Assembly (NCBI GenBank): GCA_965222575.1
Contig: OZ244958.1
Coordinates: forward strand, 928,001 to 992,000
Source of the DNA: Alphaproteobacteria bacterium
GTDB lineage: Bacteria > Pseudomonadota > Alphaproteobacteria > G965222575
Direction: 5' to 3'
DNA length: 64,000 bases
A program made the position numbers and the translations under genes. This document shows, in pieces, positions 2-20,256 of the stretch. The first letter of the stretch is position 1. Each line of letters starts with the position of its first letter. Under the pieces are notes generated by a model. That model was not told the origin of the DNA and searched no databases. It saw only the letters and a list, made by a program, of their open reading frames with translations.

Positions 2-1075
2 TCTTTACCGTTAGCCTATGATAAGATTATGTCATGGGCAGATGAAGTACGGGTACTTGGGTTGCGTGCTAATGCTGATACGCCTCAGGATACGGAGCTT
101 GCGCTATCACTTGGTGCAGAAGGGATAGGATTGTGTCGAACGGAACATATGTTTTTTGCCTCTGATAGACTAAGGTTAATAAGGATGTGTATTTTTTCCT
201 CCTCTGAAGAGGTTCGTCAAAAAGCGCTAGATGCATTACTACCGCTTCAGAAGCAGGATTTCATAGAGATTTTTTCTTGTTTAGGAGGGTTACCAGCAAC
301 GATTCGTCTTTTAGACCCTCCGTTACACGAGTTTTTGCCTCAAAAGGAGGAGGATTTTGCTCTTTTAGCGCAGGAGTTAGAGTTATCATTAGGAGATGTT
401 CAGAATCGCTACAGGATTTTGAAAGAAACCAATCCCATGCTAGGTCACCGCGGTTGTCGTTTAGGGATAAGCTATCCATCAATTTATAGGATGCAAAGCG
501 AAGCAATTTTAGGAGCGGCAGCAGTGGTACAGAAGCAAGGGATAAAAGTGAATCCTGAGGTAATGATTCCTCTCGTGATAACAGCTGAAGAGCTTAGGAT
601 TTTAAGGGATATGATTATGGAGTGTGCAAAAAGGATAGAAAAGCAGGAAGGGATAAAGCTTTGTTTTGCTATTGGGACAATGATAGAAACGCCGCGTGCG
701 GCTTTGTTAGCCGATGAGATAGCGCAATATGCGGAATTTTTCAGTTTTGGCACGAACGACTTAACACAAACGACTTTAGGGTTATCTAGGGATGATGCGC
801 ATTTTTTAGCGGACTATACGCAACAAGAGATTTTGAAAGAGGACCCGTTTAGCACACTTGATACAGCTGGGGTAGGGCAGTTGATAAAAATTGCCATGAA
901 GAAAGGGTTGGAAGCCCGTAAAGGTCTTAAGATAGGGATATGCGGAGAACATGGGGGAGACCCTAGAAGCATCAGGTTTTTTCATTGTGAGAAGATGGAT
1001 TATATTTCCTGTTCTTCCTATCGTCTTCCTATTGCGCGCTTAGCAGCGGCGCAAGCTGTTCTTAAAGACTCATAA
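2..1075 (+). CDS. ppdK: Pyruvate phosphate dikinase, C-terminal part (5' end outside window)
   Basis: Motifs RANADTP, GAEGIGLCRTEHMFF, RLLDPPLHEFLP, NPMLGHRGCR, GTMIETPRA, FSFGTNDLTQ, GICGEHGGDP. Frame is open from base 2. Confidence 0.96.
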   Translation, partial: SLPLAYDKIMSWADEVRVLGLRANADTPQDTELALSLGAEGIGLCRTEHMFFASDRLRLIRMCIFSSSEEVRQKALDALLPLQKQDFIEIFSCLGGLPATIRLLDPPLHEFLPQKEEDFALLAQELELSLGDVQNRYRILKETNPMLGHRGCRLGISYPSIYRMQSEAILGAAAVVQKQGIKVNPEVMIPLVITAEELRILRDMIMECAKRIEKQEGIKLCFAIGTMIETPRAALLADEIAQYAEFFSFGTNDLTQTTLGLSRDDAHFLADYTQQEILKEDPFSTLDTAGVGQLIKIAMKKGLEARKGLKIGICGEHGGDPRSIRFFHCEKMDYISCSSYRLPIARLAAAQAVLKDS

Positions 1076-1441
1076 TGTGAGGCTCACTAGTGAGGGCTCA
1101 CAATACCAAAAGTTGAGTCAATAATAGAAAGATTGACGGCATAGCGGCCCTCTAAGTCAGGGCTCACAATATCAATCACTCCTCCAAATTGGATACCCCC
1201 CTCTAATGGCATAGCGGCCCTCTAAATGAGGGCTCACGATACTCATTCTCACGATAAGCATTAGCCGTTCTCAGGTATAGCGGCCCTCTATTTGAGGGCT
1301 CACGATACTCATCCATGCCTATTTAACACTTCACCCTCTGGTATAGCGGCCCTCTATTTGAGGGCTCACGATACTGACATGAAAACCTTTATGACAGAAG
1401 GTCGTGGTATAGCGGCCCTCTATTTGAGGGCTCACGATACT
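1072..1441. CRISPR. CRISPR sub-array A: 6 repeats (leftmost three degenerate), 5 spacers
   Basis: 36-nt repeat GGTATAGCGGCCCTCTATTTGAGGGCTCACGATACT at 1274, 1340 and 1406. Variants at 1208 and 1138, and a half-conserved copy at 1072-1107. Unique spacers of 30, 34, 30, 30 and 30 nt. Confidence 0.95.
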
Positions 1442-1519
1442 GAGTACCGTGTAACCCTTTGATACAAGACTACTAACCTGGACTTACTGTTAGCGAAAAT
1501 CGCTACTGCCAGCAATAAT
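1442..1519. promoter_or_regulatory. Leader of sub-array A with IHF consensus site
   Basis: Diverged copy of 1902-1981. Minus strand TATCAAAGGGTTA (1452-1464) matches WATCAANNNNTTR, 10 bp from the repeat. Confidence 0.7.
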
Positions 1520-1667
1520 CTACTCATTTTTTTCCATTACGTCAAGAGACTTCATCCAAACAGTAAACACTTTTTTTACAGGTAAGCGGCGATTGAGCCT
1601 TTTCCCCTTCCAATCCTCTAAAACCTTATGCTCCTTTTTACCTTTGAACCTTCTTTGCGGGAACTTT
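1520..1667 (-). pseudogene. 3' fragment (48 codons plus stop) of a diverged allele of the 409-aa HEPN-like gene
   Basis: Translates KFPQRRFKGKKEHKVLEDWKGKRLNRRLPVKKVFTVWMKSLDVMEKNE*, versus KFPKRRFKGKKGHKVLEDWKGKRFNRRKPVKKVFAVWMKSLDVMEKNE* in the intact gene (5 aa differences). Confidence 0.92.
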
Positions 1668-1901
1668 GGTATAGCGGCCCTCTATTTGAGGGCTCACGAT
1701 ACCGATGATAATCACCCTAAAGATATCCTCAGGGGTATAGCGGCCCTCTATTTGAGGACTCACGATACCAAAGTAATCACTACATGTAAACATCCCTACG
1801 GTATAGCGGCCCTCTATTTGAGGGCTCACGATACCAAGATATTCTTGACATTGCCGAGTTATTGTGGTATAGCGGCCCTCTATTTGAGGGCTCACGATAC
1901 C
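1668..1901. CRISPR. CRISPR sub-array B: 4 repeats, 3 spacers
   Basis: Repeat GGTATAGCGGCCCTCTATTTGAGGGCTCACGATACC at 1668, 1734 (1 mismatch), 1800 and 1866. Three unique 30-nt spacers. Confidence 0.96.
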
Positions 1902-1981
1902 AAGTACCGTGTAACCCTTTGATAATAAGACTACTATACATGGACTTACTGTTAGCGAAATCGCTAACAACCAGCAATAAT
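1902..1981. promoter_or_regulatory. Leader of sub-array B with IHF site and hairpin
   Basis: IHF consensus at 1912-1924. Inverted repeat TGTTAGCGA-AA-TCGCTAACA at 1950-1969, between the array and the gene stop. Confidence 0.7.
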
Positions 1982-3211
1982 CTACTCATTTTTTTCCATT
2001 ACGTCAAGAGACTTCATCCAAACAGCAAACACTTTTTTCACAGGCTTGCGACGATTGAACCTCTTCCCCTTCCAATCCTCTAAAACCTTATGCCCCTTTT
2101 TACCTTTGAACCTTCTTTTCGGGAATTTTGTGCCTCTTGCGCTCGTTTTATATGTAAAATCCTTAATGCATTTTCTCAGAGCCTTATATAAGGCTCTCTT
2201 ATCATCAGTGCTTAATTCTGCTGCTATGCACTGAAAAACCTCTTCTTTTTTAAGATACTCTCCTTTTTTATCCTCTATTTCAAAGAAAAGCCTGCCATGA
2301 CGAAAATTCTGCTCTATCTTGCCTAGCTTATCTTTCAGATACCCTTTTCTGTTCAGAAGTGCCTTATCCTCTTTTAGAGGCTTCAGAAAAACCTTGCATT
2401 GTTCAGACATCTTACGAGCACACCATATCACATTATAAATATACCTTTGACGCACAGTTTTATCTCTTTGCGTTTCTTCTTCTGGGTTTTCAAGTGTCTT
2501 AAATTCCTCAAGCCCCTTCTCAATATACTTATCTACAGAGTCTTCCATGTTTTGTAATTCAAACTTTTTGTGTTTTCTCACAGAGCCGTGTTGTCTTAAT
2601 TTATCTTTTGGTGTTTTGCTCTTTTTGAAGTTCTTCCAATTCTCAAGGCAACACGCATACCTATCAGGAAATTTTTGTTGTACAAACTCCAAGACTTTAG
2701 CAACTGTTTTCGCTTCTAAGAAAGCAAACAGGGCTTGTTCAACGGCCTCAGAAGAGAGTGCACACCGCTCAGGTTTTTCCCTTGAATCATCAGGATGGTG
2801 TAGAATATGACGAGCCGTTATCAATGTTTTCCAGTGTTCCATAAAGGACTCTGGAGTTAGGTATTGAAAGTCTGTACTGTGCCTTAAGTTATTGAGTATT
2901 CTTGTTTTTCTCTCCTTGTTTTCTAAAGTGCATTCCATCACCTTAAGATATTGCTCACTTCCTAAAGGGTCTTGTTGAGTAGAGTAGAGGACTTCCTCAA
3001 ATGTTTCAGTGTGGATGTTTTTTTTCTTGCAGAGGTTTTTATGCCCTTTCCAGCTTCTTTGTCCCGATGCTTCTGTTTGGCGAAAAACCATCTCCTGAAG
3101 AATAAAAAGGATAGACTTCCCTGCTTCTTTTAGGAAGTTCTTATAAGATAAGCGCTCTGTCTCTTGTAGTTTTGAGACTGCATCTAAAAACGTTGTCTTA
3201 TGGTCGCTCAT
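1982..3211 (-). CDS. CRISPR-associated HEPN-like protein, candidate miniature Cas13-like effector (409 aa)
   Basis: WKTLITA-RHILHH-P (R134-H139, RxxxxH). LGKI-EQNFRH-GRLFF (300-305) is a possible degenerate second HEPN motif. Lys/Arg-rich, stop codon 80 bp from the array. Confidence 0.7.
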   Translation of the reverse strand: MSDHKTTFLDAVSKLQETERLSYKNFLKEAGKSILFILQEMVFRQTEASGQRSWKGHKNLCKKKNIHTETFEEVLYSTQQDPLGSEQYLKVMECTLENKERKTRILNNLRHSTDFQYLTPESFMEHWKTLITARHILHHPDDSREKPERCALSSEAVEQALFAFLEAKTVAKVLEFVQQKFPDRYACCLENWKNFKKSKTPKDKLRQHGSVRKHKKFELQNMEDSVDKYIEKGLEEFKTLENPEEETQRDKTVRQRYIYNVIWCARKMSEQCKVFLKPLKEDKALLNRKGYLKDKLGKIEQNFRHGRLFFEIEDKKGEYLKKEEVFQCIAAELSTDDKRALYKALRKCIKDFTYKTSARGTKFPKRRFKGKKGHKVLEDWKGKRFNRRKPVKKVFAVWMKSLDVMEKNE

Positions 3212-3264: not shown

Positions 3265-4296
3265 TTATTTTACCCCTTTCTCCTTCATAGCATTTTTCAG
3301 GTATTCTATCACTTTTTCCAGCCCTTTTCTACTATAAGCAGGTGGAAAATTTGGAGAATGTATTGCCAAGCTTCTTTCTGCCATATCAAGAGGTGTTTGT
3401 CCTCTTTTATCCTTGAGATAGATATCGGCACCCTCTTTGACGAGGAGTTCAACAACATCTATACTTCCTTGATAGGCGGCGTTATGAAGCAGTGTTCTCT
3501 TATCATTTTTGGAAATGACATGGATATTAGCTCCTAGGTGCATCAGATAGCTGAGTGTTTTGATACCACTATAGGCATACCACACAGGTGTATGATTGCC
3601 GTAATGGGTTTTGGCTTCAATATTTGCTCCTGCCTTTATTAGGAGCTCTGCGATATCTTTATAATCAAAGGAACTTGCGTAGTGGAGGGGAGTCTTGCCT
3701 TCTAGGTCTTGTATATCCACAGAGGCTCCAGCCTTTATCAGAATCTCCACTAAGTCTTTCTCTCCGATCCAAGCGGCATCATGGAGTGCTGAATTGCCGG
3801 GATTACTTGATGTCACATTAACATTCGCGCCTTTTTTGATGAGATACAGCACTATATCGAGCTGAGAATTTTTAGTGACTGCATACATGAGTGGGGTTTG
3901 GTTCTTGTGATCCTTGACATTGACGGGACAGCCTGCCTCTATAAGAGTTTTGACAATTTTGAAATGACCATTCAGAGTTGCCAGATGGAGCGGTGTTTGA
4001 TGCGTACGATTTTTACCTGCTATTTTTGCGCCCATTTTCAGTAGGTAGTTCACAATCTCTAAGTGACCATTAGAGGCTGCGAGGTGAAGTGGTGTAGGGC
4101 GCAAGGGACTATCCCTCAAAAAAGGCGGTAGAGGCCTCTTGCTTTCATCTGGGGCATTAACAGAGACACCTTGTTTTATGAGGTCTTTGACTTTCTGAAG
4201 ATTTCCCTCTTTTGCTGCATTGTGTATCGGGGCACAAGTCCCTTGATTAAGAGTGCATAGCACGAGCAAGGCAGACAAAAGAAGAAGTGTTCGCAT
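3265..4296 (-). CDS. Secreted ankyrin-repeat protein
   Basis: Signal peptide MRTLLLLSALLVLCTLNQGTCA followed by multiple TPLH/GA.VN repeats. Confidence 0.93.
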   Translation of the reverse strand: MRTLLLLSALLVLCTLNQGTCAPIHNAAKEGNLQKVKDLIKQGVSVNAPDESKRPLPPFLRDSPLRPTPLHLAASNGHLEIVNYLLKMGAKIAGKNRTHQTPLHLATLNGHFKIVKTLIEAGCPVNVKDHKNQTPLMYAVTKNSQLDIVLYLIKKGANVNVTSSNPGNSALHDAAWIGEKDLVEILIKAGASVDIQDLEGKTPLHYASSFDYKDIAELLIKAGANIEAKTHYGNHTPVWYAYSGIKTLSYLMHLGANIHVISKNDKRTLLHNAAYQGSIDVVELLVKEGADIYLKDKRGQTPLDMAERSLAIHSPNFPPAYSRKGLEKVIEYLKNAMKEKGVK

Positions 4297-4400
4297 GGGC
4301 TAATGAAAAGATATCACAGGGGATTTTTTGTGTCAATTTGTGTGTTAGGCGCTTGACTTGACAGGAGAGCAGAGAGAGTTATACCCTGAGGGCATGACAA
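3949..4400. repeat. ~450-bp direct repeat, copy 1 (copy 2 at 6037-6488)
   Basis: Near-identical at offset 2088. Covers the 5' third of the ankyrin gene and its upstream region. Confidence 0.93.
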
Positions 4401-4504
4401 CTTACGCTGTAAGTCTTTCCTGCTTTCTCTTGCTGAGTTAAAACTGTAATTTTCAAAATCCTATCCACATCATGGGTGCCTATACGTGGAGGGATAACAG
4501 GAAA

Positions 4505-5032
4505 CTAATGCGCTAATTTATCTTTATCATCAGGTATTTTTATCATTGTATTGAATGTGTAAACCACCACTACAAATGTACTAAATGTATAGGTAAATAG
4601 ACTCACCCAAAGTGATATGCACATATATGAAAAAACACCAAAAGATTGAAGTTGGAAAGGGAAGATTAGCCCTAGTAATGCTGGTATCAAAGTAGCAAAT
4701 CCAAGCTTGATAACTCTTATTAAATCAGATTGAAATTTTTTCATAGCAGGTGTGCCGGAAACAGCAACAATGAATTTATTGCTTTTACTATGGGTATAGA
4801 CAAAAACAGAAAACAAAAATCCTGTCTGAATGGCACACCAATCGAAACCAGCATTGAACAATCCTTCTAGAGAGATGCGTTCAGACTCTATAAACATCAG
4901 TATTTTCTCATGTTGCCAGAGGAATACTATCCACAGCAAAACACAAAATATAAACAACCAATGCTTTTTTAGGGACTCAAAGGACACTTGGCTAGCCTTA
5001 GTTTTTGATAAATTGATACAAGTTGTATTCAT
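4505..5032 (-). CDS. Membrane protein (~4 TM)
   Basis: Four hydrophobic stretches. Lies 27 bp downstream of the 273-aa gene on the same strand. Confidence 0.75.
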   Translation of the reverse strand: MNTTCINLSKTKASQVSFESLKKHWLFIFCVLLWIVFLWQHEKILMFIESERISLEGLFNAGFDWCAIQTGFLFSVFVYTHSKSNKFIVAVSGTPAMKKFQSDLIRVIKLGFATLIPALLGLIFPFQLQSFGVFSYMCISLWVSLFTYTFSTFVVVVYTFNTMIKIPDDKDKLAH

Positions 5033-5059
5033 TCGTTTTCAAACATCTCTTAATGAGTT

Positions 5060-5881
5060 TCACTTTTCGAGATATATTTTAAAATAGTCTTTATGGTTTT
5101 CCAACCTTTCCTTGATAAGCTTTACTCTAAGTGAATAACTTTCTTTTGGATCAGAAATTGATTTAAAATCAATTTTATCTTTAAGCATTTCATTTAAAAG
5201 ATCAATTTCATTAGGGTCATCTGCTACTTTTACTTTTACAGACTCTGCTGTTCCTTCTTTTAATAGCTTTAAAAGTGTTTTCAAGCTATCCTTAAGCACC
5301 TTTTTTGTGCGTCCCACACTAAGTTCAATAGTGATATATGGGGCGTTAGAGAGTTTTTGTATCTCTTCCATGCTCTTATTGAAGGGATGAGATTGAAAAT
5401 TCTTTATTTGTGCGGTTTTAACTTTAATTCTCGTCAGTTCCCCACTCTCAATTTTTGGCCATACCTCCTTACCACGAATAGGCCGGAAGCAAAAACCATT
5501 ACTCGAATTATGTTCCTTTAGGTATTGTCCTATTTTTGATAACCCTAAAATGTGATTATTATACTGAATTGCTAAAATGCTTAGAGGTACATTAAAAACA
5601 AATGCCATACTGTACCCAATTTTATCAGCTTCAAGTTTAACAAGGTGCTCTTTTTTTACCTGTGCAGGAAGGTTATCTGTCTGTATTCGAATCATATCCC
5701 CTGAGAAGATATCACCATCTTCTTCAAGATGCTGAAGACGCATATTTACTTCATTAATAAACTTTTCTCTTGCTTCTACAGATTCCTTCTTGAGATCTTT
5801 CAAAGCACTGGAGAATTCTCTATTCCCAGTATCTGATAGGACAACCTGAAAATACCGTACAGTGATCTTTACATCGCTCAA
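5060..5881 (-). CDS. DUF6731/DUF4747-like protein
   Basis: 273-aa ORF. The ITVRYFQV start, ILAIQYN and IDLLNEMLK segments resemble that family (recognised from memory). Confidence 0.55.
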   Translation of the reverse strand: MSDVKITVRYFQVVLSDTGNREFSSALKDLKKESVEAREKFINEVNMRLQHLEEDGDIFSGDMIRIQTDNLPAQVKKEHLVKLEADKIGYSMAFVFNVPLSILAIQYNNHILGLSKIGQYLKEHNSSNGFCFRPIRGKEVWPKIESGELTRIKVKTAQIKNFQSHPFNKSMEEIQKLSNAPYITIELSVGRTKKVLKDSLKTLLKLLKEGTAESVKVKVADDPNEIDLLNEMLKDKIDFKSISDPKESYSLRVKLIKERLENHKDYFKIYLEK

Positions 5882-5964
5882 GATAGCACTCCCTTTCTTA
5901 ACAACACAAGAGCATTGTACTTAGTTTCCTTGGAACAAGCAATCATAACTTTATGACCACTAAT

Positions 5965-6384
5965 CTACAGAAATGTGGTGTAACTCTTTCCTGTCTTTTC
6001 CAAAGTCGCATCTTTGCCCGTCATCTCCTGCCAACGTTTGACAATTTTGAAATGACCATTCAGAGTTGCCAGATGGAGCGGTGTTTGATGCGTACGATTT
6101 TTACCTGCTATTTTTGCGCCCATTTTCAGTAGGTAGTTCACAATCTCTAAGTGACCATTAGAGGCTGCGAGGTGAAGTGGTGTAGGGCGCAAGGGACTAT
6201 CCCTCAAAAAAGGCGGTAGAGGCCTCTTGCTTTCATCTGGGGCATTAACAGAGACACCTTGTTTTATGAGGTCTTTGACTTTCTGAAGATTTCCCTCTTT
6301 TGCTGCATTGTGTATCGGGGCACAAGTCCCTTGATTAAGAGTGCATAGCACGAGCAAGGCAGACAAAAGAAGAAGTGTTCGCAT
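5965..6384 (-). pseudogene. Truncated ankyrin duplicate fused to a phage DNA-methylase C-terminus
   Basis: Identical to 3265-4296 up to FKIVK, then RWQEMTGKDATLEKTGKSY, which resembles the IVKRWQ.FTGK.A.LE.TG tail of prophage N4/N6 methylases. Confidence 0.75.
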
Positions 6385-6578: not shown

Positions 6579-9500
6579 ATGAATACTATTGCATTGGAAT
6601 TAGAAGAGTTGCGAAAGAAGGTCCTCAACCCGACTAAAAAAAATCCTATGATTGATACAAAGATCAATAGCAGGTCATTTATTAGAATTGTGGATGAAGT
6701 GCCTAGTCAGCTTCTTAAAATTCTTGAAGAGGAGGAGAAGAAAATGAAAATTATCCCTTTGCCTCCTTTAGAGGAGGAGCCAAAGGATGAAAAAACTCAG
6801 GAGTTTATGAGGGAATTGATAAACGCACAGCATACTGATGAGGAATATAAACGTCAGATGAAAGACCTAGAGGAAAGAAGTGACAATGGTGATAAAGATT
6901 TGGAAAAAGAGGAAAAAGAGGAATATCTAGAACGGGAACTGAAGGATAGGGTACGCGAAACGCTAGGGTTAGAACCCAGACAAAAAAAAGAATCCCCCGA
7001 CCTTAAAAAACATGCGCGCAATCATAATATATCCCCAAGTTATGATTTGCCTCTTGAACCCAAGCGTCATAGTGATGAACGTCATATTGATAAGAATATT
7101 CAAACTCTTTATTTGCCTGATAAACTTCATGCCCTCTTAGAGAATCTCTGTAAAAGAGATAAAACATCCCAAGAAGAAAAGGGCACTGGAATTTTATACA
7201 TAGCACTTGGCTTTCTTGAATGGGGGGAAAATGAAGATAAGGTAAATCGATCACCTTTGGTGTTAATTCCAGTTCAAATTGAAAGAAAAAGTTCGCCAAA
7301 GGGGCCGGAATTTTGGATGTGTAGTGATGGACAGGAAGCGCAAGGAAACAGCCTTCTTGCTCAAAAACTCAAGGAAGAGTTCAAAATAGAATTAGAAGAC
7401 TATTCCTCTAGCAATACCTTAGAAGAGTATTTCCAGAAAATAGAAGAACAAAAACCCCCTACTATGAAGATATGGAATTTTAGAAGGTGGGGTATAATAG
7501 GAGGATTTTCTTTTGTTGGTTTAACCATGTATAAAGACCTTGACCCTGAACAATGGGAGAGCAACCTTGAGGAAAACTCCCTGGTCTCAACTTTACTCAA
7601 ATCTTCGGGAGGGGCAAGTAGTACTGGAAGTGCTGGATTATTTTGCGATGACTATAATACAGATGAAGAGGAAACTGAACAAAAATTTCCCTATCCCATA
7701 TTTTCAGCTGATCCATCACAGTTTAGTACAATAGTAGATGTAGTAAATGGAAAGGATTTAGCCGTTGAAGGGCCACCGGGCACTGGTAAATCACAAACAA
7801 TTATGAATACTATTGCAGCCATGTTGGCTGACCGTAAGAAAGTTCTTTTTATAGCGCAAAAGCAAGTCGCTATTGAGGTAGTCAGGTCACGCCTGCAAGA
7901 AAAAATAGGAGATTATGTATTGTCTTTGCAACCTAAACAAAAAAAGGAATTTTATACTTCTCTTAAAAAGAGAGTGGAACACGCAAGACCTGGAAAAATT
8001 TATAACTATAACCAGATTGAAAAAGAGCATAACAATTTTGGAAATGCAAGAAAAAAGATACAGTCATATTTGGAATTTTTAGGCACTAAGCCTCCCAAAA
8101 CAAACCTTACTATTCATGAGATTCTTGGACGAGCTGTCAAACATGATGTCATGAATCTTCCTAAAGAGTTCAAAAAAATTGAAATTGATATACAGGAAGT
8201 AACTAAAGAGATGCTTCGCACATGTCAGTCTCATTGTACAGACCTCTACAAGGCATACAAAAATGCTTCAGAAGGGAAGAGTTGTTGGGAACATGTTACA
8301 GAAGACAACGTAAATCTCTTCAGCGCAGAGACAATACTTGAGAACACCGAAGAATCTTCAACAGTTTTTACTCGAGCCGATGAAGGGATTAAAGAACTGA
8401 ATAAGGAACAGAAACATCACTTCTGTAATATTCACGAAGTTAACGAATATGTTAAAGACTGCTTAGAAGAAATAGAAAAGAAAGATTGGTCTTTTCCTAA
8501 AGATTATCCTGTAATTGCAGAATCTTTCCAGACTCATGCTAATTGTGCTGATGCATACAGAGAAAGGCTGAAGAAGGTTAAAAAATACAAAGAACACGTT
8601 GATGGATGCGGAGATTACCCTTTGAAAGCTCTTTTGAAAGCTCTTTCACTTTTTGATTTTAGAGAGATGCTCAAGATGTACTCCAATCTCCCCGAAGAGG
8701 TCTTAGGGATATCCCCACAGATAAAGAAACGATTAGATGACTCAAAGAAAGAATTTCCTCGTTTCAGTAAGGATTTCAGTGAGTTCCAAAAGAATAAAAA
8801 GGCGCTAGAAACGATATTTGAAAAACGGGTCTTTGAGGAGAAGTTTTGGAATGAATATAAGAAATCTATTGATACTCACATCAAACAGTTTTCTAGTGCT
8901 GGGGTGTTTTTCTTCTTTTTTTCAAAAGAGTATAGAAAAAGTAGAAAGTTTTACAGGCGTATAAGTAAGAGTGGATTCTTTGTTAATGGAATTGAAGCTG
9001 AGAAAAAACTCCACGCCTTGGTTGACTGGAAAAATAAAAGACGCCGATTTGAGGATGAGAAGAAAGAGATATTAGGCCCTTATAAGAAAGAGTTAAACTT
9101 GGATTCAAATATAAAGTCTTTTGAAGAGTATGTTGATTTTGTTAAGGAGATTGAAAACACATTTGGAGGAGATGATAAAAAAGAATTCCGCCAGAGATTC
9201 AAGGAAATTGATTCTGAGAACCTGCCAAGGATTAATGATGAAGACCCTATCTTTAAAATAGAAGAGAATATAAAGCTAGCAGATTTGGAGTGCTGTATAG
9301 AAGCAGAAGAAAAAAAGTCTCGTAAATGTAAATCTGATGCTGAACTTGTAAAAATTCTTAGTGAAGGTTACCCCAAATATTTCAAAGGCCTTGATGGTTC
9401 TCTAAAAAATGTTCCTATAGATACTGAAGGTTGGTTGGAGGACAAATCCTATTCGGAAATTTCAGAAATGCTCAAAGAGGCATCTCAAGATAAGGAGGGT

Positions 9501-11192
9501 CTATTGGATTATAGTAACCTCCTTTCAAAGAAAAACCAGCTGTATCAGAAGTTCCCTCAGATTGAGAGTCTTGTAGAGAATCTTTTAGAACAAAGCAATG
9601 AGAATTTCCCTAAGATTATTGAAGCACGCATCATATATGAAATGCTAGAAGGTGTTTACAACAACTACAACAAATCTTTTTTTCAAGAACAAGACATTGA
9701 TTCCTTAAGAAAAAAATTTCAGGACGCACATTCCAACATTATAGAATACTCCCCTCAACATATACAGTCTATCATTCACTGCGACTTCACTGCTATTCCT
9801 GAAGGGGAGAAAGGAAAGTCTACGAAGGATTATACCGAAGGAGCGTTGATAAAGCATGAGTGCGCTAAGGAAAAAAGACACATATCAGTTAGGCGCTGTG
9901 TAAAACAGGCTACGGAATCCCTATTAGAGTTGAAGCCATGTTGGATGATGTCTCCCCTAACAGTGGCAGAATATCTCCCCCAGAAAGAGATATTTGATCT
10001 TGTCATCATTGATGAAGCTTCCCAAATGCCTCTGGGAGAAGCACTGGGTGCGTTGCTTCGTGCTAAGAACGCTATGATAGTTGGTGACCGCCATCAATTA
10101 CCTGCAACATCTGCTTTTAAATTCGTTTACAAGAGTGATGATGCAGGGATAGAGTCGGTTTTAGATAAAGCAAATAGCGTTTTTCCTAAACGCCGGTTGC
10201 AGTATCATTATCGCTCAAAACATGAAAGTCTTATCTCCTTTTCTAATAAACATATCTATAATGATAAACTTGAAGTTTCTTCATCTCCCATTAAAAATGA
10301 TGATCTAGGTGTTTATTATACTAAAGTGGAGGGAAAGTATTCCGGGGGTGGTGAAAATCTTAAGGAAGCAGAAGAGATGGCACTCAATATTTGTGAGTTT
10401 ATGGAAAAGAATCCGAAGAAATCATTGGGTGTGGTTGTAATGAATGCAACACAACAAGAGCTTCTTGACGAGCAAATGAAACTATTAAGAAGTGATGATA
10501 AAGATGTAGAAAAGTATATTAAAAGTTGGGAAAAACGTACAGAATCTTTCTTCATTAAAGCTTTAGAAAATGTACAAGGAGATGAACGGGATGTTATCTT
10601 TATAGGTACTGTTTACGGTCCCGATAAACAAGGACGAGTTTTTCAGAGATTTGGGGATATCAACAAAGATTACGGATACCGCCGTTTGAATGTTCTTTTT
10701 ACAAGGGCGAAGGAAAAAATAGTTACGTTTTCTTCTATGACTCCTGAAGATATCACAGCAAAGAATCGTGGAGCAGAGATGCTTAAGAAATGGCTATTAT
10801 ATTCTTATACAGGTCAATTAGAGGGTGGGGAAGATTCAGGCAGAGAACCAGACAGTACATTTGAAGAAGCTGTCATAGAGGTAATAGAGAGCTGGGATTA
10901 TAAAGCAGTTCCACAAGTCGGAGTTAAGAGGTATCGTATAGATATAGGGATAAAGCATCCAGCGTATCCTTATGGATATCTTATGGGGATAGAATGCGAT
11001 GGTGCACAGTATCACTCCTCATATGATGCACGTCAGCGAGACCACCTTAGAGAAGAGTTCTTAAAAACGCAGGGATGGAAATTGTATAGAATCTGGTCTA
11101 CTGACTGGTTTCATGACAAGCAAAAGGCAAGTGAAAAGCTGAAGGAAGAACTTGATAAAGCGTTAAGAGAAAAGACAAGTACTGTTGCTTGA
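6579..11192 (+). CDS. DUF4011 + SF1 (UPF1-like) helicase + C-terminal Vsr-like nuclease; Hhe-like anti-phage protein
   Basis: LYIALGFLEW and SPLVLIPV (DUF4011); EGPPGTGKSQT; DEASQ; VGDRHQL; HYRS; ENVQGDERD; RRLNVLFTRAK; IECDGAQYH...RIWSTDWF. Confidence 0.88.
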   Translation: MNTIALELEELRKKVLNPTKKNPMIDTKINSRSFIRIVDEVPSQLLKILEEEEKKMKIIPLPPLEEEPKDEKTQEFMRELINAQHTDEEYKRQMKDLEERSDNGDKDLEKEEKEEYLERELKDRVRETLGLEPRQKKESPDLKKHARNHNISPSYDLPLEPKRHSDERHIDKNIQTLYLPDKLHALLENLCKRDKTSQEEKGTGILYIALGFLEWGENEDKVNRSPLVLIPVQIERKSSPKGPEFWMCSDGQEAQGNSLLAQKLKEEFKIELEDYSSSNTLEEYFQKIEEQKPPTMKIWNFRRWGIIGGFSFVGLTMYKDLDPEQWESNLEENSLVSTLLKSSGGASSTGSAGLFCDDYNTDEEETEQKFPYPIFSADPSQFSTIVDVVNGKDLAVEGPPGTGKSQTIMNTIAAMLADRKKVLFIAQKQVAIEVVRSRLQEKIGDYVLSLQPKQKKEFYTSLKKRVEHARPGKIYNYNQIEKEHNNFGNARKKIQSYLEFLGTKPPKTNLTIHEILGRAVKHDVMNLPKEFKKIEIDIQEVTKEMLRTCQSHCTDLYKAYKNASEGKSCWEHVTEDNVNLFSAETILENTEESSTVFTRADEGIKELNKEQKHHFCNIHEVNEYVKDCLEEIEKKDWSFPKDYPVIAESFQTHANCADAYRERLKKVKKYKEHVDGCGDYPLKALLKALSLFDFREMLKMYSNLPEEVLGISPQIKKRLDDSKKEFPRFSKDFSEFQKNKKALETIFEKRVFEEKFWNEYKKSIDTHIKQFSSAGVFFFFFSKEYRKSRKFYRRISKSGFFVNGIEAEKKLHALVDWKNKRRRFEDEKKEILGPYKKELNLDSNIKSFEEYVDFVKEIENTFGGDDKKEFRQRFKEIDSENLPRINDEDPIFKIEENIKLADLECCIEAEEKKSRKCKSDAELVKILSEGYPKYFKGLDGSLKNVPIDTEGWLEDKSYSEISEMLKEASQDKEGLLDYSNLLSKKNQLYQKFPQIESLVENLLEQSNENFPKIIEARIIYEMLEGVYNNYNKSFFQEQDIDSLRKKFQDAHSNIIEYSPQHIQSIIHCDFTAIPEGEKGKSTKDYTEGALIKHECAKEKRHISVRRCVKQATESLLELKPCWMMSPLTVAEYLPQKEIFDLVIIDEASQMPLGEALGALLRAKNAMIVGDRHQLPATSAFKFVYKSDDAGIESVLDKANSVFPKRRLQYHYRSKHESLISFSNKHIYNDKLEVSSSPIKNDDLGVYYTKVEGKYSGGGENLKEAEEMALNICEFMEKNPKKSLGVVVMNATQQELLDEQMKLLRSDDKDVEKYIKSWEKRTESFFIKALENVQGDERDVIFIGTVYGPDKQGRVFQRFGDINKDYGYRRLNVLFTRAKEKIVTFSSMTPEDITAKNRGAEMLKKWLLYSYTGQLEGGEDSGREPDSTFEEAVIEVIESWDYKAVPQVGVKRYRIDIGIKHPAYPYGYLMGIECDGAQYHSSYDARQRDHLREEFLKTQGWKLYRIWSTDWFHDKQKASEKLKEELDKALREKTSTVA

Positions 11193-13762: not shown

Positions 13763-15505
13763 ATGAAAAGACTATGGTGTCTCTTCAGTGTCCTTGTACT
13801 GGTGGGGTCTCTTGCCCGAGCCTTTCCCCTTCACAATGCTGCCCAAAGGGGTGATCTTGATACCATCAAGGGGCTCATAGCTAAGGGGGCGGATGTGAAT
13901 GCACATGACTTTATACTCGAAGGCAATACACCGCTCCATGAGGCAGCTTGGGACGGACACAAAGAGGTAGTGGAATTTCTGCTGCAAGCAGGGGCGGATG
14001 TGAATGCACAGAACAAGCACAACTGGACACCGCTCCATATGGCAGCCTATTGGGGGCACAAGGAAGTAGCAGAGGTTCTTGTGAAAGCAGGAGCTAACCT
14101 AGAGGCAAAAGAAGCCTTGTTTTACAAGACACCGCTCCATACGGCAGAGCGGGCATTAAAAGCAACAATAGACGAAGAAAAAAAGCAGCGCCTCTCTGAG
14201 GTGATAGAGTATCTGAAAAGCAAGGAAGCGGATGACGGCTGGACACCACTCCATAGGGCAGCCTCTGAGGGGCACAAGGAGGTAGTGGAAGTTCTTTTGG
14301 AGAAGGGGGCGGAGGTGAATGCAAAGGACAAGTACGGCGTGACACCGCTCCATAGGGCAGTCTATAAGGGACACAAAGAAGTGGTGACATTCCTAGTGGC
14401 GCAGGGGGCTTCTGTGAAGGCACAGGACAAGTACGGCGGGACACCGCTCCATGGGGCAGCTTGGAACGGACACAAAGAGGTGGTGGAGGTTCTGCTACAA
14501 GCAGGGGCGGATGTGAATGCACTAAGCGATATCCATGGGACACCGCTCCATAGGGCAGTCTATAAGGGACACAAAGAAGTGGTGACATTCCTAGTGGCGC
14601 AGGGGGCTTCTGTGAAGGCACAGGACAATTACGGTGGGACACCGCTCCATAAGGCAGCCGAGGGTGGACACAAGGAGGTAGTGGAGGTTCTTTTGGAGAA
14701 GGGGGCTTCTGTGAATGCAAAGAGCAAGAAAGGCGTGACACCGCTCCATTGGGCAGCCGAAAAGGGACACGAAGAAGTGGTGACATTCCTAGTGGCGCAG
14801 GGGGCGGATGTGAATGCACAGGACAAGGAAGGCGAGACACCATTCCATAGGGCAGCCGAAAAGGGACACAAAGAGGTGGTGACATTCCTAGTGGCGCAGG
14901 GGGCGGATATCCACGCAAAGGACGATTACGGCTATACACCGCTCCATGAGGCAGCCGATAATGGACACAAGGAAGTGGTGACATTCCTAGTGGCGCAGGG
15001 GGCGGATGTGAATGCAAAGCACAAGTACGGCGAGACACCGCTCTATATGGCAGTTTATAAGGGACACAAAGAAGTGGTGACATTCCTAGTGGCCCAGGGG
15101 GCGGATGTGAAGGCACGAAACGATACCGGCAGGACACCGCTCCATTTGGCAGCTTGGAACGGGTACACGGAGGAAGTGGTGTTCTTTGTAGAGAAGGGGG
15201 CGGAGGTGAATGTACAGGACAAGTACGGCAATACACCGCTCCATTGGGCAGCCAAAAAGGGACACAAAGAGGTGGTGACATTCCTAGTGGAGAAGGGGGC
15301 AGATGTGAATGCACAGGACAAGGACGGCAGGACACCGCTCCATTGGGCAGTCTTATATGGACACAAGGAGGTGGTGACATTCCTAGTGGAAGCAGGGGCG
15401 GATGTGCATGCACAGGACAAGGACGGCGTGACACCGCTCCGTTGGGCAGACAGTGGGGGGCACAAGGAGGTAGTGGCGTATCTGAAAAGCAAGGGGGCTA
15501 AGTAG
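13763..15505 (+). CDS. Secreted ankyrin-repeat protein (580 aa)
   Basis: Signal peptide MKRLWCLFSVLVLVGSLARA; canonical 33-aa repeats. Confidence 0.95.
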   Translation: MKRLWCLFSVLVLVGSLARAFPLHNAAQRGDLDTIKGLIAKGADVNAHDFILEGNTPLHEAAWDGHKEVVEFLLQAGADVNAQNKHNWTPLHMAAYWGHKEVAEVLVKAGANLEAKEALFYKTPLHTAERALKATIDEEKKQRLSEVIEYLKSKEADDGWTPLHRAASEGHKEVVEVLLEKGAEVNAKDKYGVTPLHRAVYKGHKEVVTFLVAQGASVKAQDKYGGTPLHGAAWNGHKEVVEVLLQAGADVNALSDIHGTPLHRAVYKGHKEVVTFLVAQGASVKAQDNYGGTPLHKAAEGGHKEVVEVLLEKGASVNAKSKKGVTPLHWAAEKGHEEVVTFLVAQGADVNAQDKEGETPFHRAAEKGHKEVVTFLVAQGADIHAKDDYGYTPLHEAADNGHKEVVTFLVAQGADVNAKHKYGETPLYMAVYKGHKEVVTFLVAQGADVKARNDTGRTPLHLAAWNGYTEEVVFFVEKGAEVNVQDKYGNTPLHWAAKKGHKEVVTFLVEKGADVNAQDKDGRTPLHWAVLYGHKEVVTFLVEAGADVHAQDKDGVTPLRWADSGGHKEVVAYLKSKGAK

Positions 15506-15656
15506 TCACCTCCGCACACGAGGTTTGGTACATCCTAGCGATATGCCCCTCAGTGGTATTAGCTCCCTAAGCGAAAAGCGGCTAGAGGGGCAAGACTTTA
15601 CTTCTTAGAGGCTGTATGCTATCCTAAACAAGGTTCGTAAAGAAGAGGTACTTAAT
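15506..15656. repeat. Conserved 151-bp inter-cassette element (also 18462-18612, 23615-23765; partial ~13676-13762)
   Basis: Near-identical copies. Contains a TGCCCCTC...GAGGGGCA inverted repeat, the promoter and the RBS. Confidence 0.92.
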
Positions 15657-18461
15657 ATGAAAAGACTATGGTGTCTCTTCAGTGTCCTTGTACTGGTGGG
15701 GTCTCTTGCCCGAGCCTTTCCCCTTCACGATGCCGCCCAAAGGGGTGATCTTGATACCATCAAGGGGCTCATAGCTAAGGGGGCGGATGTGAATGCACAT
15801 GACTTTATACTCGAAGGCAATACACCGCTCCATGAGGCAGCCTCTGAGGGGCACAAGGAGGTAGTGGAATTTCTGCTGCAAGCAGGGGCGTATGTGAATG
15901 CACAGGACAAGCACAGAAATACACCGCTCCATGGGGCAGCTTGGAACGGGCACAAGGAAGTAGCAGAGGTTCTTGTGAAAGCAGGAGCTAACCTAGAGTC
16001 AACAAAAGAAGCCTTTTTTGACGAGACACCGCTCCATAAGGCAGAGCGGGGATTAAAAGCAACAATAGACGAAGAAAAAAAGCAGCGCCTCTCTGAGGTG
16101 ATAGAGTATCTGAAAAGCAAGGAAGCGGATGACGGCTGGACACCACTCCATAGGGCAGCCTCTGAGGGGCACAAGGAGGTAGTGGAAGTTCTTTTGGAGA
16201 AGGGGGCGGAGGTGAATGCAAAGGACAAGTACGGCGTGACACCGCTCCATAGGGCAGTCTATAAGGGACACAAAGAAGTGGTGACATTCCTAGTGGCCCA
16301 GGGGGCTTCTGTGAAGGCACAGGACAAGTACGGCGGGACACCGCTCCATGGGGCAGCTTGGAACGGACACAAAGAGGTGGTGGAGGTTCTGCTACAAGCA
16401 GGGGCGGATGTGAATGCACTAAGCGATATCCATGGGACACCGCTCCATAGGGCAGTCTATAAGGGACACAAAGAAGTGGTGACATTCCTAGTGGCGCAGG
16501 GGGCTTCTGTGAAGGCACAGGACAAGTATGGCGGGACACCGCTCCATAAGGCAGCCGAGGGTGGACACAAGGAGGTAGTGGAGGTTCTTTTGGAGAAGGG
16601 GGCGGAGGTGAATGCAAAGAGCAAGAAAGGCGTGACACCGCTCCATTGGGCAGCCGAAAAGGGACACGAAGAAGTGGTGACATTCCTAGTGGCGCAGGGG
16701 GCGGATATCCATGCAAAGGACAAGTACGGCAATACACCATTCCATAGGGCAGCCGAAAAGGGACACAAGGAGGTGGTGACATTCCTAGTGGCGCAGGGGG
16801 CGGATATCCACGCAAAGGACGATTACGGCTATACACCGCTCCATGAGGCAGCCGATAATGGACACAAGGAAGTGGTGACATTCCTAGTGGCGCAGGGGGC
16901 GGATGTGAATGCAAAGCACAAGTACGGCGATACACCGCTCTATAGGGCAGTTTATAAGGGACACAAAGAAGTGGTGACATTCCTAGTGGCGCAGGGGGCG
17001 GATGTGAAGGCACGAAACGATACCGGCAGGACACCGCTCCATTTGGCAGCTTGGAACGGGTACAAGGAGGAAGTGGTGTTCTTTGTAGAGAAGGGGGCGG
17101 AGGTGAATGTACAGGACAAGTACGGCAATACACCGCTCCATTGGGCAACGGAAAAGGGACACAAAGAGGTGGTGACATTCCTAGTGGAGAAGGGGGCAGA
17201 TGTGAATGCACAGGACGAGGACGGCAGGACACCGCTCCATTGGGCAGTCTTATATGGACACAAGGAGGTGGTGACATTCCTAGTGGAAGCAGGGGCGGAT
17301 GTGCATGCACAGGACAAGGACGGCGTGACACCGCTCCGTTGGGCAGACAGTGGGGGGCACAAGGAGGTAGTGGCGTATCTGAAAAGCAAGGGGACTAATC
17401 CCCTTCACGATGCCGCCCAAAGGGGTGATCTTGATACCATCAAGGGGCTCATAGCTAAGGGGGCTTCTGTGAATGTACGAGGCAAGTACGGCAGGACACC
17501 GCTCCATAGTGCATCCGGAGGGGGACACAAAGAAGTGGTGACATTCCTAGTGGCCCAGGGGGCGGATGTGCATGCACAAACCGTGTACGGCAATACACCG
17601 CTCCATCGGGCAGCCGAGGGTGGACACAAGGAGGTAGTGGAGGTTCTTGTGGCCCAGGGGGCGGATGTGAATGCCCAAAACAAGGACGGCAAGACACCGC
17701 TCCATTTGGCAGCCTCATCTGGAAGCAAGGAGGTAGCGGAGTTTCTAGTGGCCCAGGGGGCGGATGTGAATGCCCAAAACAAGGACGGCAAGACACCGCT
17801 CCATTTGGCAGCCTCATCTGGAAGCAAGGAGGTAGCGGAGTTTCTAGTGGAGAAGGGGGCTAATGTGAATGCCCAAAACAAGGACGGCAAGACACCGCTC
17901 CATTTGGCAGCCTCATCTGGAAGCAAGGAGGTAGCGGAGTTTCTAGTGGAGAAGGGGGCTAATGTGAATGTAGCGACCAGCAACGGTTATACACCGCTCC
18001 ATCGGGCAGCCGAAATGGGAAGCAAAGCAGCAGCAGAGGTTCTTGTGGCCCAGGGGGCGGATGTGAATGCCCAAAACAATTACGGCGAGACACCGCTCTA
18101 TAGGGCAGTCTATAAGGGACACAAAGAAGTGGTGACATTCCTTTTGGCGCAGGGGGCGGAGGTGAATGTACAGGACAAGTACGGCAATACACCGCTCCTT
18201 AGGGCAGCCTATAGAGGACACAAGGCAGTAGTGGCGTTCCTAGTGGAAGCAGGGGCGGATGTGAATGTACAGGACAAGCAGGGCTGGACACCGCTCCATG
18301 TGGCAGCCTATAGAGGACACAAGGCAGTAGTGGCATTCCTAGTGGCCCAGGGGGCGGATGTGAATGCAAAGAACTCGAACGGCAGTACACCGCTCCATTT
18401 GGCAGTCTTATATGGACACAAGGAGATAGTGGCGTATCTGAAAAGCAAGGGGGCTAAGTAG
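15657..18461 (+). CDS. Secreted ankyrin-repeat protein (934 aa), fusion of two cassettes
   Basis: First ~580 aa nearly identical to 13763-15505, then YLKSKGTN-PLHDAAQRGDLDTIK restarts the mature N-terminus. Confidence 0.95.
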   Translation: MKRLWCLFSVLVLVGSLARAFPLHDAAQRGDLDTIKGLIAKGADVNAHDFILEGNTPLHEAASEGHKEVVEFLLQAGAYVNAQDKHRNTPLHGAAWNGHKEVAEVLVKAGANLESTKEAFFDETPLHKAERGLKATIDEEKKQRLSEVIEYLKSKEADDGWTPLHRAASEGHKEVVEVLLEKGAEVNAKDKYGVTPLHRAVYKGHKEVVTFLVAQGASVKAQDKYGGTPLHGAAWNGHKEVVEVLLQAGADVNALSDIHGTPLHRAVYKGHKEVVTFLVAQGASVKAQDKYGGTPLHKAAEGGHKEVVEVLLEKGAEVNAKSKKGVTPLHWAAEKGHEEVVTFLVAQGADIHAKDKYGNTPFHRAAEKGHKEVVTFLVAQGADIHAKDDYGYTPLHEAADNGHKEVVTFLVAQGADVNAKHKYGDTPLYRAVYKGHKEVVTFLVAQGADVKARNDTGRTPLHLAAWNGYKEEVVFFVEKGAEVNVQDKYGNTPLHWATEKGHKEVVTFLVEKGADVNAQDEDGRTPLHWAVLYGHKEVVTFLVEAGADVHAQDKDGVTPLRWADSGGHKEVVAYLKSKGTNPLHDAAQRGDLDTIKGLIAKGASVNVRGKYGRTPLHSASGGGHKEVVTFLVAQGADVHAQTVYGNTPLHRAAEGGHKEVVEVLVAQGADVNAQNKDGKTPLHLAASSGSKEVAEFLVAQGADVNAQNKDGKTPLHLAASSGSKEVAEFLVEKGANVNAQNKDGKTPLHLAASSGSKEVAEFLVEKGANVNVATSNGYTPLHRAAEMGSKAAAEVLVAQGADVNAQNNYGETPLYRAVYKGHKEVVTFLLAQGAEVNVQDKYGNTPLLRAAYRGHKAVVAFLVEAGADVNVQDKQGWTPLHVAAYRGHKAVVAFLVAQGADVNAKNSNGSTPLHLAVLYGHKEIVAYLKSKGAK

Positions 18462-18612
18462 TCACCTCCGCACACGAGGTTTGGTACATCCTAGCGATAT
18501 GCCCCTCAGTGTTATTAGCTCCCTAAGCGAAAAGCGGCTAGAGGGGCAAGACTTTACTTCTTAGAGGCTGTATGCTATCCTAAACAAGGTTTGTAAAGAA
18601 GAGGTACTTAAT

Positions 18613-20256
18613 ATGAGAAGACTATGGTGTCTCTTGAGTGTTCTTGTACTGGTGGGGTCTCTTGCCCGAGCCTTTCCCCTTCACGATGCCGCCCAAAGGG
18701 GTGATCTTGATACCATCAAGGGGCTCATAGCTAAGGGGGCTTCTGTGAATGCGAAAGACAGAGAGGGCTGGACACCGCTCCGTGGGGCAGTTTTTCGGGG
18801 ACAGGTGGAGGTGGTGAAGGTTCTGCTTCAAGCAGGAGCGGATGTGCATGCACGAAACGATACCGACTGGACACTGCTTCATAGGGCAGCCTATATGGGT
18901 CAGGTGGAGTTGGTGGAGGTTCTGCTTCAAGCAGGGGTTGATGTGAATGCCCAAAACAAGGACGGCAAGACACCGCTCAGTGCTGTAGCCTATATGGGTC
19001 AGGTGGAGTTGCTGGAGGTTCTGCTACAAGCAGGGGTTGATGTGAATGCCCAAAACAAGTACGGCAATACACCGCTCCATGAGGCAGCTTGGGACGGACA
19101 CAAAGAGGTAGTGGAATTTCTGCTGCAAGCAGGGGCGGATGTGAATGCACAGGACAGGGGCGGCAATACACCGCTCCATTGGGCAGCCGGAGGGGGACAC
19201 AAGGAAGTGGTGGAGGTTCTAGTGGAGAAGGGGGCGGATGTGAATGCCCAGGACAAGTACGGCTGGACACCGCTCCATAAGGCAGCCGATGAGGGGTACA
19301 AGGAAGTGGTGGAGGTTCTGCTACAAGCAGGGGCGGATGTGAATGTGAAGGCGAAAGGCGAGGACAGCAGGACACCGCTCCATGAGGCAGCCTCTGAGGG
19401 GCACAAGGAAGTAGTGGAGGTTCTCCTCCACGCAGGGGCGGATGTGAATGCAAAAAACAAGTACGGCTGGACACCGCTCGATTGGGCAGCCGGTGGGGGG
19501 CACAAGGAAGTGGTGGAGGTTCTGCTACAAGCAGGGGCGGATGTGCATGCACGAGACGATTTCGGCGGTACACTGCTCCATAGTGCAGCCTCATCTAGAA
19601 GCAAGGAGGTAGTGGAGTTTCTAGTGGAGAAGGGGGCGGATATCCACGCAAAGGACGATGACGGCAGGACACCGCTCTTTAGTGCAGCCTCATCTGGAAG
19701 CAAGGAAGTGGTGGCGTTCCTAGTGGCGCAGGGGGCGGATGTGAAGGCACGAAACACAATCGGTGGGACACCGCTCCATAGGGCAGCCTCATCTGGGAGC
19801 AAGGAAGTGGTGGAGGTTCTGCTTCAAGCAGGGGCGGATGTGCATGCACGAAACGATACCGGCGATACACCGCTCCATTGGGCAGCCGAAATGGGAAGCA
19901 AAGCAGCAGCAGAGGTTCTTGTGGCCCAGGGGGCGGATGTGGAGGCAAAGAACAATTACGACTGGACGCCGCTCCATAGTGCAACCGGCTGGACGAGGGA
20001 CCATTGGGTAGTCGAAGAGGAACGCAAAGAAGTGGTGACATTCCTAGTGGAGAAGGGGGCTAATGTGAATGCAGCGACCAGCAACGGCGATACACCGCTC
20101 CATTTGGCAGCCTCATGGGCAGACAAGGAGGTAGTGGCATTCCTAGTGGAGAAGGGGGCGGATGTGAATGCAAAGGACAAGAAAGGCAGGACACCGCTCC
20201 ATTTTGCAGGACTCACGAAGGTGATAGCGTATCTGAAAAGCAAGGGTGGGCGATAA
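18613..20256 (+). CDS. Secreted ankyrin-repeat protein (547 aa)
   Basis: Closely related signal peptide and N-cap; ankyrin repeats. Confidence 0.95.
   Translation: MRRLWCLLSVLVLVGSLARAFPLHDAAQRGDLDTIKGLIAKGASVNAKDREGWTPLRGAVFRGQVEVVKVLLQAGADVHARNDTDWTLLHRAAYMGQVELVEVLLQAGVDVNAQNKDGKTPLSAVAYMGQVELLEVLLQAGVDVNAQNKYGNTPLHEAAWDGHKEVVEFLLQAGADVNAQDRGGNTPLHWAAGGGHKEVVEVLVEKGADVNAQDKYGWTPLHKAADEGYKEVVEVLLQAGADVNVKAKGEDSRTPLHEAASEGHKEVVEVLLHAGADVNAKNKYGWTPLDWAAGGGHKEVVEVLLQAGADVHARDDFGGTLLHSAASSRSKEVVEFLVEKGADIHAKDDDGRTPLFSAASSGSKEVVAFLVAQGADVKARNTIGGTPLHRAASSGSKEVVEVLLQAGADVHARNDTGDTPLHWAAEMGSKAAAEVLVAQGADVEAKNNYDWTPLHSATGWTRDHWVVEEERKEVVTFLVEKGANVNAATSNGDTPLHLAASWADKEVVAFLVEKGADVNAKDKKGRTPLHFAGLTKVIAYLKSKGGR

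Follow-up and report, generated by a model that had tools for sequence, protein, structure and literature searches.

A stand-alone CRISPR array of type VI-B/Cas13an design beside the gene of a 409-residue basic protein in a small alphaproteobacterial genome: a possible, very divergent Cas13an-like system

The Cas13an family as described comprises thirteen proteins of 429-577 amino acids (aa), ten of them encoded beside CRISPR arrays built of 36-nucleotide (nt) repeats and 30-nt spacers (PMC12165695, Science 2024). Their CRISPR RNA (crRNA), in which the spacer stands 5' of the repeat, is processed by the HEPN site of the protein and guides the cleavage of RNA (PMC12165695). The loci are devoid of other cas genes, with type II cas1-cas2 present in trans in four of the ten genomes, and the proteins have no similarity to other Cas13s that hidden Markov models would detect (PMC12165695). 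Cas13an2 displays two Rx4H motifs, R127/H132 and R363/H368, the HEPN topology in the family being rearranged in the order 2-3-4-1 (PMC12165695). Two further members, less than 50% identical to the known ones, both carry two R-phi-xxx-H sites according to the part of 10.1101/2025.09.30.679098 that describes them. A locus of similar design is found in a stretch of 64,000 nt, hereafter the window, which spans positions 928,001-992,000 of the forward strand of contig OZ244958.1 (assembly GCA_965222575.1) from an Alphaproteobacteria bacterium whose genome is a single contig of 1.216 Mb with 45.7% guanine plus cytosine (GC). There, a CRISPR array without any cas gene at its side (window positions 1072-1901) is followed by an open reading frame (ORF) coding for a protein of 409 aa (1982-3211, minus strand). 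It is plausible, unproven and somewhat short of probable that this gene encodes a very divergent Cas13an-like HEPN RNase, the effector of a stand-alone array of type VI-B/Cas13an design. The Cas13an concept has been in print since 2024, and what we describe would at best be a new, unusually small and very divergent variant of it. No described CRISPR effector that is both array-linked and endowed with a single HEPN site came up in a limited literature search.

The stretch 1072-1901 is a true CRISPR array, because its repeats are regular and structured, its spacers unique and its repeat confined to one locus. Ten copies of a 36-nt sequence succeed each other with a period of 66 nt, in agreement with the first-pass annotation of the window, which had counted ten such repeats and mostly 30-nt spacers. 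They are distributed over two blocks. Block 1 (1072-1441), the older, leader-distal part, has six repeats, starting at 1072, 1138, 1208, 1274, 1340 and 1406, and five spacers of 30, 34, 30, 30 and 30 nt; block 2 (1668-1901) has four repeats, starting at 1668, 1734, 1800 and 1866, one of them with a single mismatch, and three spacers of 30 nt. All eight spacers differ, and seven measure exactly 30 nt. Seven of the ten repeats are identical or one nucleotide apart, the three leftmost (1072, 1138, 1208) being degenerate, and the very first runs into the stop codon of the pyruvate phosphate dikinase gene lying upstream. The last base of the repeat is T in the intact copies of block 1 (1208-1406) and C in every copy of block 2. 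When the 1.216-Mb genome is scanned for the repeat with up to three mismatches, eight matches are obtained in the forward direction, all at this locus, and none in reverse, nor does a control pattern yield any. Beyond this genome, an exact scan of genome contigs and viral contigs with the 24-nt core of the repeat gave no match, and a degenerate two-hairpin pattern retrieved 119 stretches from genome contigs and 118 from metagenome contigs, all of them type I-C arrays, with at best 15 of 36 positions identical to the repeat described here. Rfam returned nothing at the gathering score over the whole window and, at E ≤ 10 on 1000-2100, four chance matches with no CRISPR-DR family among them. As a separate matter, a k-mer screen had flagged genome positions ~121,140-121,900 as array-like; this candidate was rejected, as it consists of some eight head-to-tail units of ~98 nt without spacers, and the periodic sequence near 121 kb and 54 kb proved to be simple tandem repetition rather than arrays.

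The repeat folds end to end, as had been proposed at first reading, with -17.6 kcal/mol on the plus strand and -20.4 kcal/mol on the minus strand (z = -4.3 and -6.0, respectively; none of 200 shuffled sequences folds equally well). On the plus strand the fold shows a terminal stem of 5 base pairs (bp), an internal loop of 3+4 nt, an inner stem of 7 bp and a loop at positions 16-20. This is the layout of the 36-nt repeat of Cas13bt3 (Cas13X.1), for which PMC7613696 gives stems of 4 bp (terminal) and 6 bp (inner), separated by a 5+5 internal loop, and a 5-nt loop likewise at positions 16-20; the terminal stem thus has 5 bp here vs 4 there, and the internal loop 3+4 vs 5+5. Comparison base by base has to be limited to the 25 nucleotides that the text of that paper names, and was made by hand: 14 of them are identical on the plus strand (binomial tail about 0.001 under a uniform model), including C8, A17, U19 and U20, which the protein recognises (PMC7613696), vs 9 on the minus strand (0.15). 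The initial statement that the plus-strand repeat matches that of Cas13X.1 at about 23 of 36 positions is comparable over those 25 named bases only, where the count is 14. Spacers of 30 nt are a further likeness to type VI-B systems and to Cas13bt3. By contrast, type VI-B effectors have about 775 aa or more, two HEPN domains and in addition Lid and Helical domains; nothing comparable was detected here. That Cas13bt/X effectors are about twice the size of the present protein had been stated at the outset and agrees with the position of the fourth catalytic residue of Cas13bt3, His744 (PMC7613696).

Resemblance to Cas13an was assessed from the main text of PMC12165695. It comprises a small single protein beside a stand-alone array whose repeats measure 36 nt and whose spacers measure 30 nt, without local cas genes; type II cas1-cas2 genes elsewhere in the genome, as in four of ten published hosts, the subtype being II-C here; and an Rx4H motif near residue 130, R134/H139 in the present case vs R127/H132, the HEPN1 site, in Cas13an2. 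The protein differs by its length, 409 vs 429-577 aa (PMC12165695), which places it 20 residues under the minimum of a range that is descriptive and no strict criterion, and which agrees roughly with the initial remark that members of that clade are slightly larger. It also differs in having one canonical R-phi-xxx-H motif where they have two, a second HEPN domain having not been found. Outside the CRISPR world, the HEPN RNases of the AbiD/F, RnlA/LsoA and Csm6 families resemble it in being helical and basic, in carrying an R-[NH]-xxx-H motif and in their location within an island rich in defence genes; they differ in that they are not CRISPR-linked, and the 409-aa protein matches no family of Pfam or NCBIfam. 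With a 36-nt repeat, a fold of VI-B layout, 30-nt spacers and no local cas gene, the array is of the type VI-B/Cas13bt-like design announced by the first-pass annotation, and the design of the locus as a whole matches Cas13an and type VI-B well.

The linkage between gene and array can be followed in some detail, since the ten repeats do not form the single continuous array that had been implied. An overlooked segment of 226 nt (1442-1667, minus strand) splits them in two. It is a copy, ~90% identical, of 1902-2130, that is to say of the leader together with codons 355-409 of the gene, now decayed, with one TAG stop and 82% aa identity over these codons (repeat family D3, 193 nt at 90%). The leader itself (1902-1981, minus strand) amounts to only the 80 nt that lie between the stop codon of the 409-aa gene and the first repeat, a proximity that supports their linkage. 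Within it, 1904-1917 resembles, imperfectly and in inverted form, the end of the repeat and, when the minus strand is folded, pairs with the adjacent repeat's first half; a strong hairpin occupies 1950-1967. A sigma-70-like site, TTGACG-17-TAGATT, is present at 1979-2007 on the minus strand, where it overlaps the last codons of the 409-aa gene and points into the array; it has 9 of 12 consensus positions, and the duplicate has retained a copy of it at 1545-1517. Promoter-like sites are here matches to the sigma-70 consensus only, six of which were observed in the array region for 4.5 expected.

In the simplest history, one repeat would have been duplicated together with the leader and the end of the gene, the two copies would then have diverged by ~10%, and three new spacers would have been added at the gene-proximal repeat. 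Because of this ~10% divergence, of the three unique spacers and of the shared variant C at the last repeat position, block 2 seems to have grown after the duplication. The same succession of three steps suggests that the acquisition end of the array is the one adjoining the 409-aa gene and the decaying end the one adjoining the dikinase gene. As one duplication copied leader, last 55 codons and repeat together, with block 2 growing later, gene and array have probably stayed side by side while spacers were being taken up, and the array was probably acquiring spacers until recently. This bears directly on a competing explanation, which we hold possible and nearly as likely as a Cas13an-like system, namely that the array is an orphan lying beside an unrelated, fast-evolving gene. 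It would be what is left of a type VI or type II system since lost, or else it would be kept by uptake through the II-C Cas1-Cas2 proteins of the genome, its crRNAs being unused. A small genome of 1.2 Mb and an array whose left end is decaying are what one would anticipate in that case, and surveys of arrays situated away from cas genes reportedly find that most come without a new effector. Yet seven repeats have stayed identical or one nucleotide apart and block 2 apparently grew after the duplication had diverged by 10%, which weakens the orphan explanation because continued growth argues for long maintenance beside the 409-aa gene. A hairpin repeat unlike those of the II-C and I-C systems is, furthermore, hard to explain without a dedicated protein reading it.

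The candidate for such a protein in a Cas13an-like system is the product of the 409-aa ORF (minus strand; GC 46, 31 and 39% at the three codon positions, 38.5% on average). It is predicted to be all-helical and is strongly basic, with 89 lysines and arginines vs 61 aspartates and glutamates, hence a net charge of +28, and a Lys/Arg-rich C-terminal tail. Its sole motif of the HEPN-type form R-[NHQ]-xxx-H is R134-H-I-L-H-H139, encoded by 2795-2812 on the minus strand. Both the basic character and the RxxxxH motif had been recognised from the start, and they stand; the HEPN context then attributed to the motif stays putative. By a rough estimate, a few per cent of proteins this long would carry an R[NH]xxxH motif through chance alone, which makes the motif weak evidence when taken by itself. 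Candidates for a second motif are weak: RSWKGH at residue 52, 82 residues from R134, an Rx6H at 104 and another Rx6H at 367 in the Lys-rich tail. AlphaFold, run without an alignment, produced models that are all-helical and of low confidence, with a predicted local distance difference test (pLDDT) score of 40.9 for the whole protein and, for residues 1-210, of 58.2 with a predicted template modelling score of 0.50. Searched with a protein language model, for which the tool sets its line at 0.9 and scores below it are leads only, a third of shuffled proteins also obtaining ten concordant matches, the whole protein has its nearest clusters at 0.85, including DUF4145 and RnlA/LsoA. With residues 1-210, most of the named neighbours are HEPN RNase families (RnlA/LsoA DBD, HEPN_RnaseLS, Csm6_HEPN, RiboL-PSP), at 0.83-0.87 and under that line. 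This is the only positive hint of a HEPN domain beyond the motif, a weak one that serves as a lead. A type V reading, with a tracrRNA (trans-activating crRNA) on the plus strand at 1902-1991 and a Cas12-like protein, was considered and rejected: the prediction is all-helical, without the beta-sheet of RuvC, and no domain of the TnpB/Cas12f type is present in the genome.

The array has company in the genome. Members of the Cas1 family are found at two distant loci, one belonging to a complete type II-C system and the other to a complete type I-C system; the absence of cas1 and cas2 noted in the first instance is true of the locus and false for the genome. The II-C locus (genome positions about 1,126,425-1,132,175) codes for a Cas9 of 988 aa, a Cas1 of the cas1_NMENI family and Cas2, with a tracrRNA-like anti-repeat upstream of cas9 and an array of 36-nt repeats, the 66-nt period of which implies spacers of 30 nt. 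That array shares with the stand-alone one not only this geometry but also motifs at the repeat ends: read on the minus strand, the repeat of the stand-alone array is identical to the II-C repeat at 19 of 36 positions, mostly at its ends, a value reached by 6 of 100,000 shuffles. Promoter-like sites are seen in the upstream leaders of both, matching the consensus at 11 of 12 positions in the II-C case and at 9 of 12 here. The two differ in that the stand-alone array has a repeat with a strong internal hairpin and no adjoining cas genes. An observation in its own right is that one more exact copy of the II-C repeat stands ~260 nt upstream of the first in that array (genome 1,126,425-1,126,720), directly followed by the 11/12 sigma-70-like promoter, a repeat-leader-array layout that recalls the split described above. 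The I-C array, in turn, is made of 32-nt repeats and 33-37-nt spacers, with a sequence unlike that of the repeat under study.

These relationships could mean that the array is a satellite of a resident system, its crRNAs being used by the II-C Cas9 or by the I-C Cascade. Geometry, end motifs and the 19 identical positions are in keeping with that idea as far as II-C is concerned, and the right-hand flank of the array is weakly similar to the cas2-side flank of the II-C array, at a score equalled by 60 of 5000 random 25-mers. Pairing tells otherwise: the II-C anti-repeat forms a duplex of -23.9 kcal/mol with its own repeat, vs -10.1 and -7.5 kcal/mol with the repeat of the stand-alone array, no better than shuffled repeats (-8.4 ± 2.4), and type II repeats seldom contain a strong internal hairpin. 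A search of the whole genome revealed no second anti-repeat: complementarity to the repeat never exceeds 15 nt, and the best 15-mer lies inside a gene for a TonB receptor. The I-C system differs in repeat length, spacer length and sequence. As far as sequence and pairing energies can tell, the repeat is not complementary to the II-C tracrRNA and belongs to neither resident system, and we regard use of its crRNAs by either one as highly improbable. Among the 358 ORFs of at least 350 aa in the genome, the one for threonyl-tRNA synthetase alone carries two R[NHQ]xxxH motifs. No other effector or tracrRNA matching the array was found in this genome. What the common geometry and repeat ends do seem to fit is the use of the same II-C Cas1-Cas2 integrase, and loading of the array by the II-C adaptation genes appears to be the most likely source of its spacers.

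Returning to the Cas13an-like effector, a series of results weighs against it, and part of them speaks for the orphan array. First among these is the isolation of the protein. Phmmer, run over 1.84 billion representative proteins, matched it to one entry, a copy 99% identical, and 5.8 billion proteins, searched with word seeds, yielded that same entry alone, whether at E ≤ 0.01 or at E ≤ 10; Pfam and NCBIfam (at E ≤ 1), PADLOC, PHROGs and the sequences of the PDB gave nothing. It had been suggested that homologues be collected to see whether they co-occur with the repeat, and this was carried out, with that near-identical copy as its entire yield, hence nothing to compare. A gene without relatives or family match is just what would be met beside an orphan array, and so is the scarcity of HEPN signals: the single canonical R-phi-xxx-H motif vs the two present in every described Cas13an, with no second one, and no fold match. 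With the low-confidence model of residues 1-210, Foldseek had no match in the PDB at E ≤ 0.001 (best E 0.67, template modelling score ~0.2) and none of the matches listed was a HEPN protein; the structural check proposed at the outset thus recognised no HEPN fold, from which, with a model this poor, little follows in either direction. When compared by hhalign with an alignment of seven AbiD/F proteins, which come from 5 of 201 genomes of the class (G000 included), the protein obtained a probability of 0.5%. Its two halves have no mutual sequence similarity, 206 of 500 shuffles scoring equally well. Two other unannotated neighbours that were tested are likewise without family match, which is again in line with an orphan array: because genes lacking relatives are common here, the adjacency of gene and array is weak evidence by itself. 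The eight spacers have no match in the host genome, nor among 50,697 records of phages and 72,556 of plasmids, and IMG/VR holds no exact match to the cores of the three newest.

The direction of transcription belongs to the same list, as its signals conflict. The minus strand fits the leader, the direction of the gene, the promoter-like site (retained also in the duplicate) and the degenerate repeats at the far end, and it likewise fits the orientation in which the 19 of 36 positions are shared with the II-C repeat and the promoter-like site in the II-C upstream leader. The plus strand fits better the register of the Cas13bt3 repeat. On balance we slightly favour the minus strand. In further searches, tblastn with the 409-aa protein gave one chance match among plasmids (E 0.2, in an esterase gene) and none among phages, and a search of viral contigs for a related locus found none. 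An ORF of 497 aa (E 6e-4), the sole match among 60 genomes of the same class besides G000, was rejected, as it looks like the specificity subunit of a restriction-modification system and has no adjoining array.

A third possibility is that the 409-aa protein acts together with the array without being a HEPN RNase, as an RNA-binding regulator, a processing factor or an effector with another active site. The tight and old linkage with the array would be explained, as would the strongly basic character and the Lys/Arg-rich C-terminal tail, and all tests for a HEPN domain beyond the motif were negative or inconclusive. On the other hand, the conserved-looking motif is of HEPN type, the weak neighbours in feature space are HEPN RNases, and no other catalytic motif was recognised; we think this role unlikely. 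The proposal that started the analysis, a new miniature RNA-guided RNase, has thus fared well at the level of array design; at the level of the protein, the HEPN nuclease stays putative.

If the Cas13an-like effector is nonetheless what the gene encodes, the system could operate as follows. The array would be transcribed, more likely from the minus strand, from the leader located just after the stop codon of the gene. The basic, helical 409-aa protein would bind the 36-nt hairpin repeat, and each crRNA, with one spacer of ~30 nt, would guide the cleavage of complementary phage RNA in an active site centred on R134/H139. The rest of this site might be contributed either by a degenerate second HEPN half towards the C-terminus or by another molecule of the same protein. 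New spacers would be supplied in trans by the type II-C Cas1-Cas2 proteins of the genome. In its boldest form, this scenario would have the protein be the smallest CRISPR effector, a homodimeric RNA-guided RNase with a single working HEPN site, intermediate between AbiD/F-like toxins and the double-HEPN Cas13an proteins, its array loaded by borrowed II-C Cas1-Cas2; we hold this form to be unlikely.

Variation within the population adds to the picture of the gene. The locus is present in three sequencing runs, none of them of RNA, and in one of these, X2, a minority haplotype departs from the reference in two patches, 2263-2331 (11 bases) and 2654-2723 (7 bases), with identical flanks. The 18 base changes affect 16 codons, 6 of them synonymously and 10 not, and create no stop. 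Such clustered patches could stem from recombination with a more distant allele or from local diversifying selection. The gene is thus kept open while changing fast in patches, which suits a defence gene without proving one.

The surroundings are those of an island with at least one defence gene. The 409-aa gene lies in a stretch of low GC content, 34-41% vs 45.7% for the genome, and its five nearest ORFs have no cas match in Pfam, nor, for those scanned there, in NCBIfam or PADLOC. At 6579-11192, on the plus strand, a protein of 1537 aa combines DUF4011, a superfamily-1 helicase and a C-terminal MTES_1575 nuclease domain; as two PADLOC models recognise it, PDC-S37 (E 7e-275) and Hhe (E 1e-184), we place a defence gene in this low-GC stretch, at 3.4 kb from the array. 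Directly next to the 409-aa gene, an ankyrin gene (3265-4296, minus strand) has its first ~115 residues repeated exactly in a truncated ORF (5965-6384, minus strand). Between these copies, the stretch 4363-6066 contains genes of 175 aa (membrane-like) and 273 aa without family match, and its contig depth is below that of its flanks in two runs (9.4 vs 19.8, and about 7 vs 45.5); it looks like an insertion carried by only part of the population. Further along, 13763-25958 and 30573-44332 are occupied by very long genes of 99-nt ankyrin-type repeats, up to about 31 copies, together with other genes made of 51-nt and collagen-like short repeats, and a 146-nt tandem repeat extends over 50009-51081 (7.3 copies, 91% matches).

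Should the 409-aa gene turn out to be unrelated to it, the array would be an ordinary orphan. The locus also offers a clear natural example of the borrowing from type II adaptation that has been proposed for type VI-like arrays: one complete small genome holds two arrays of 36-nt repeats and 30-nt spacers with related repeat ends and a single type II cas1-cas2 set. If the gene is the effector, the Cas13an class would extend to a smaller protein, without sequence link to its members and perhaps with one HEPN site. This would make the protein an attractive and very compact RNA-targeting tool, and it would bear on the origin of Cas13 from HEPN toxins.

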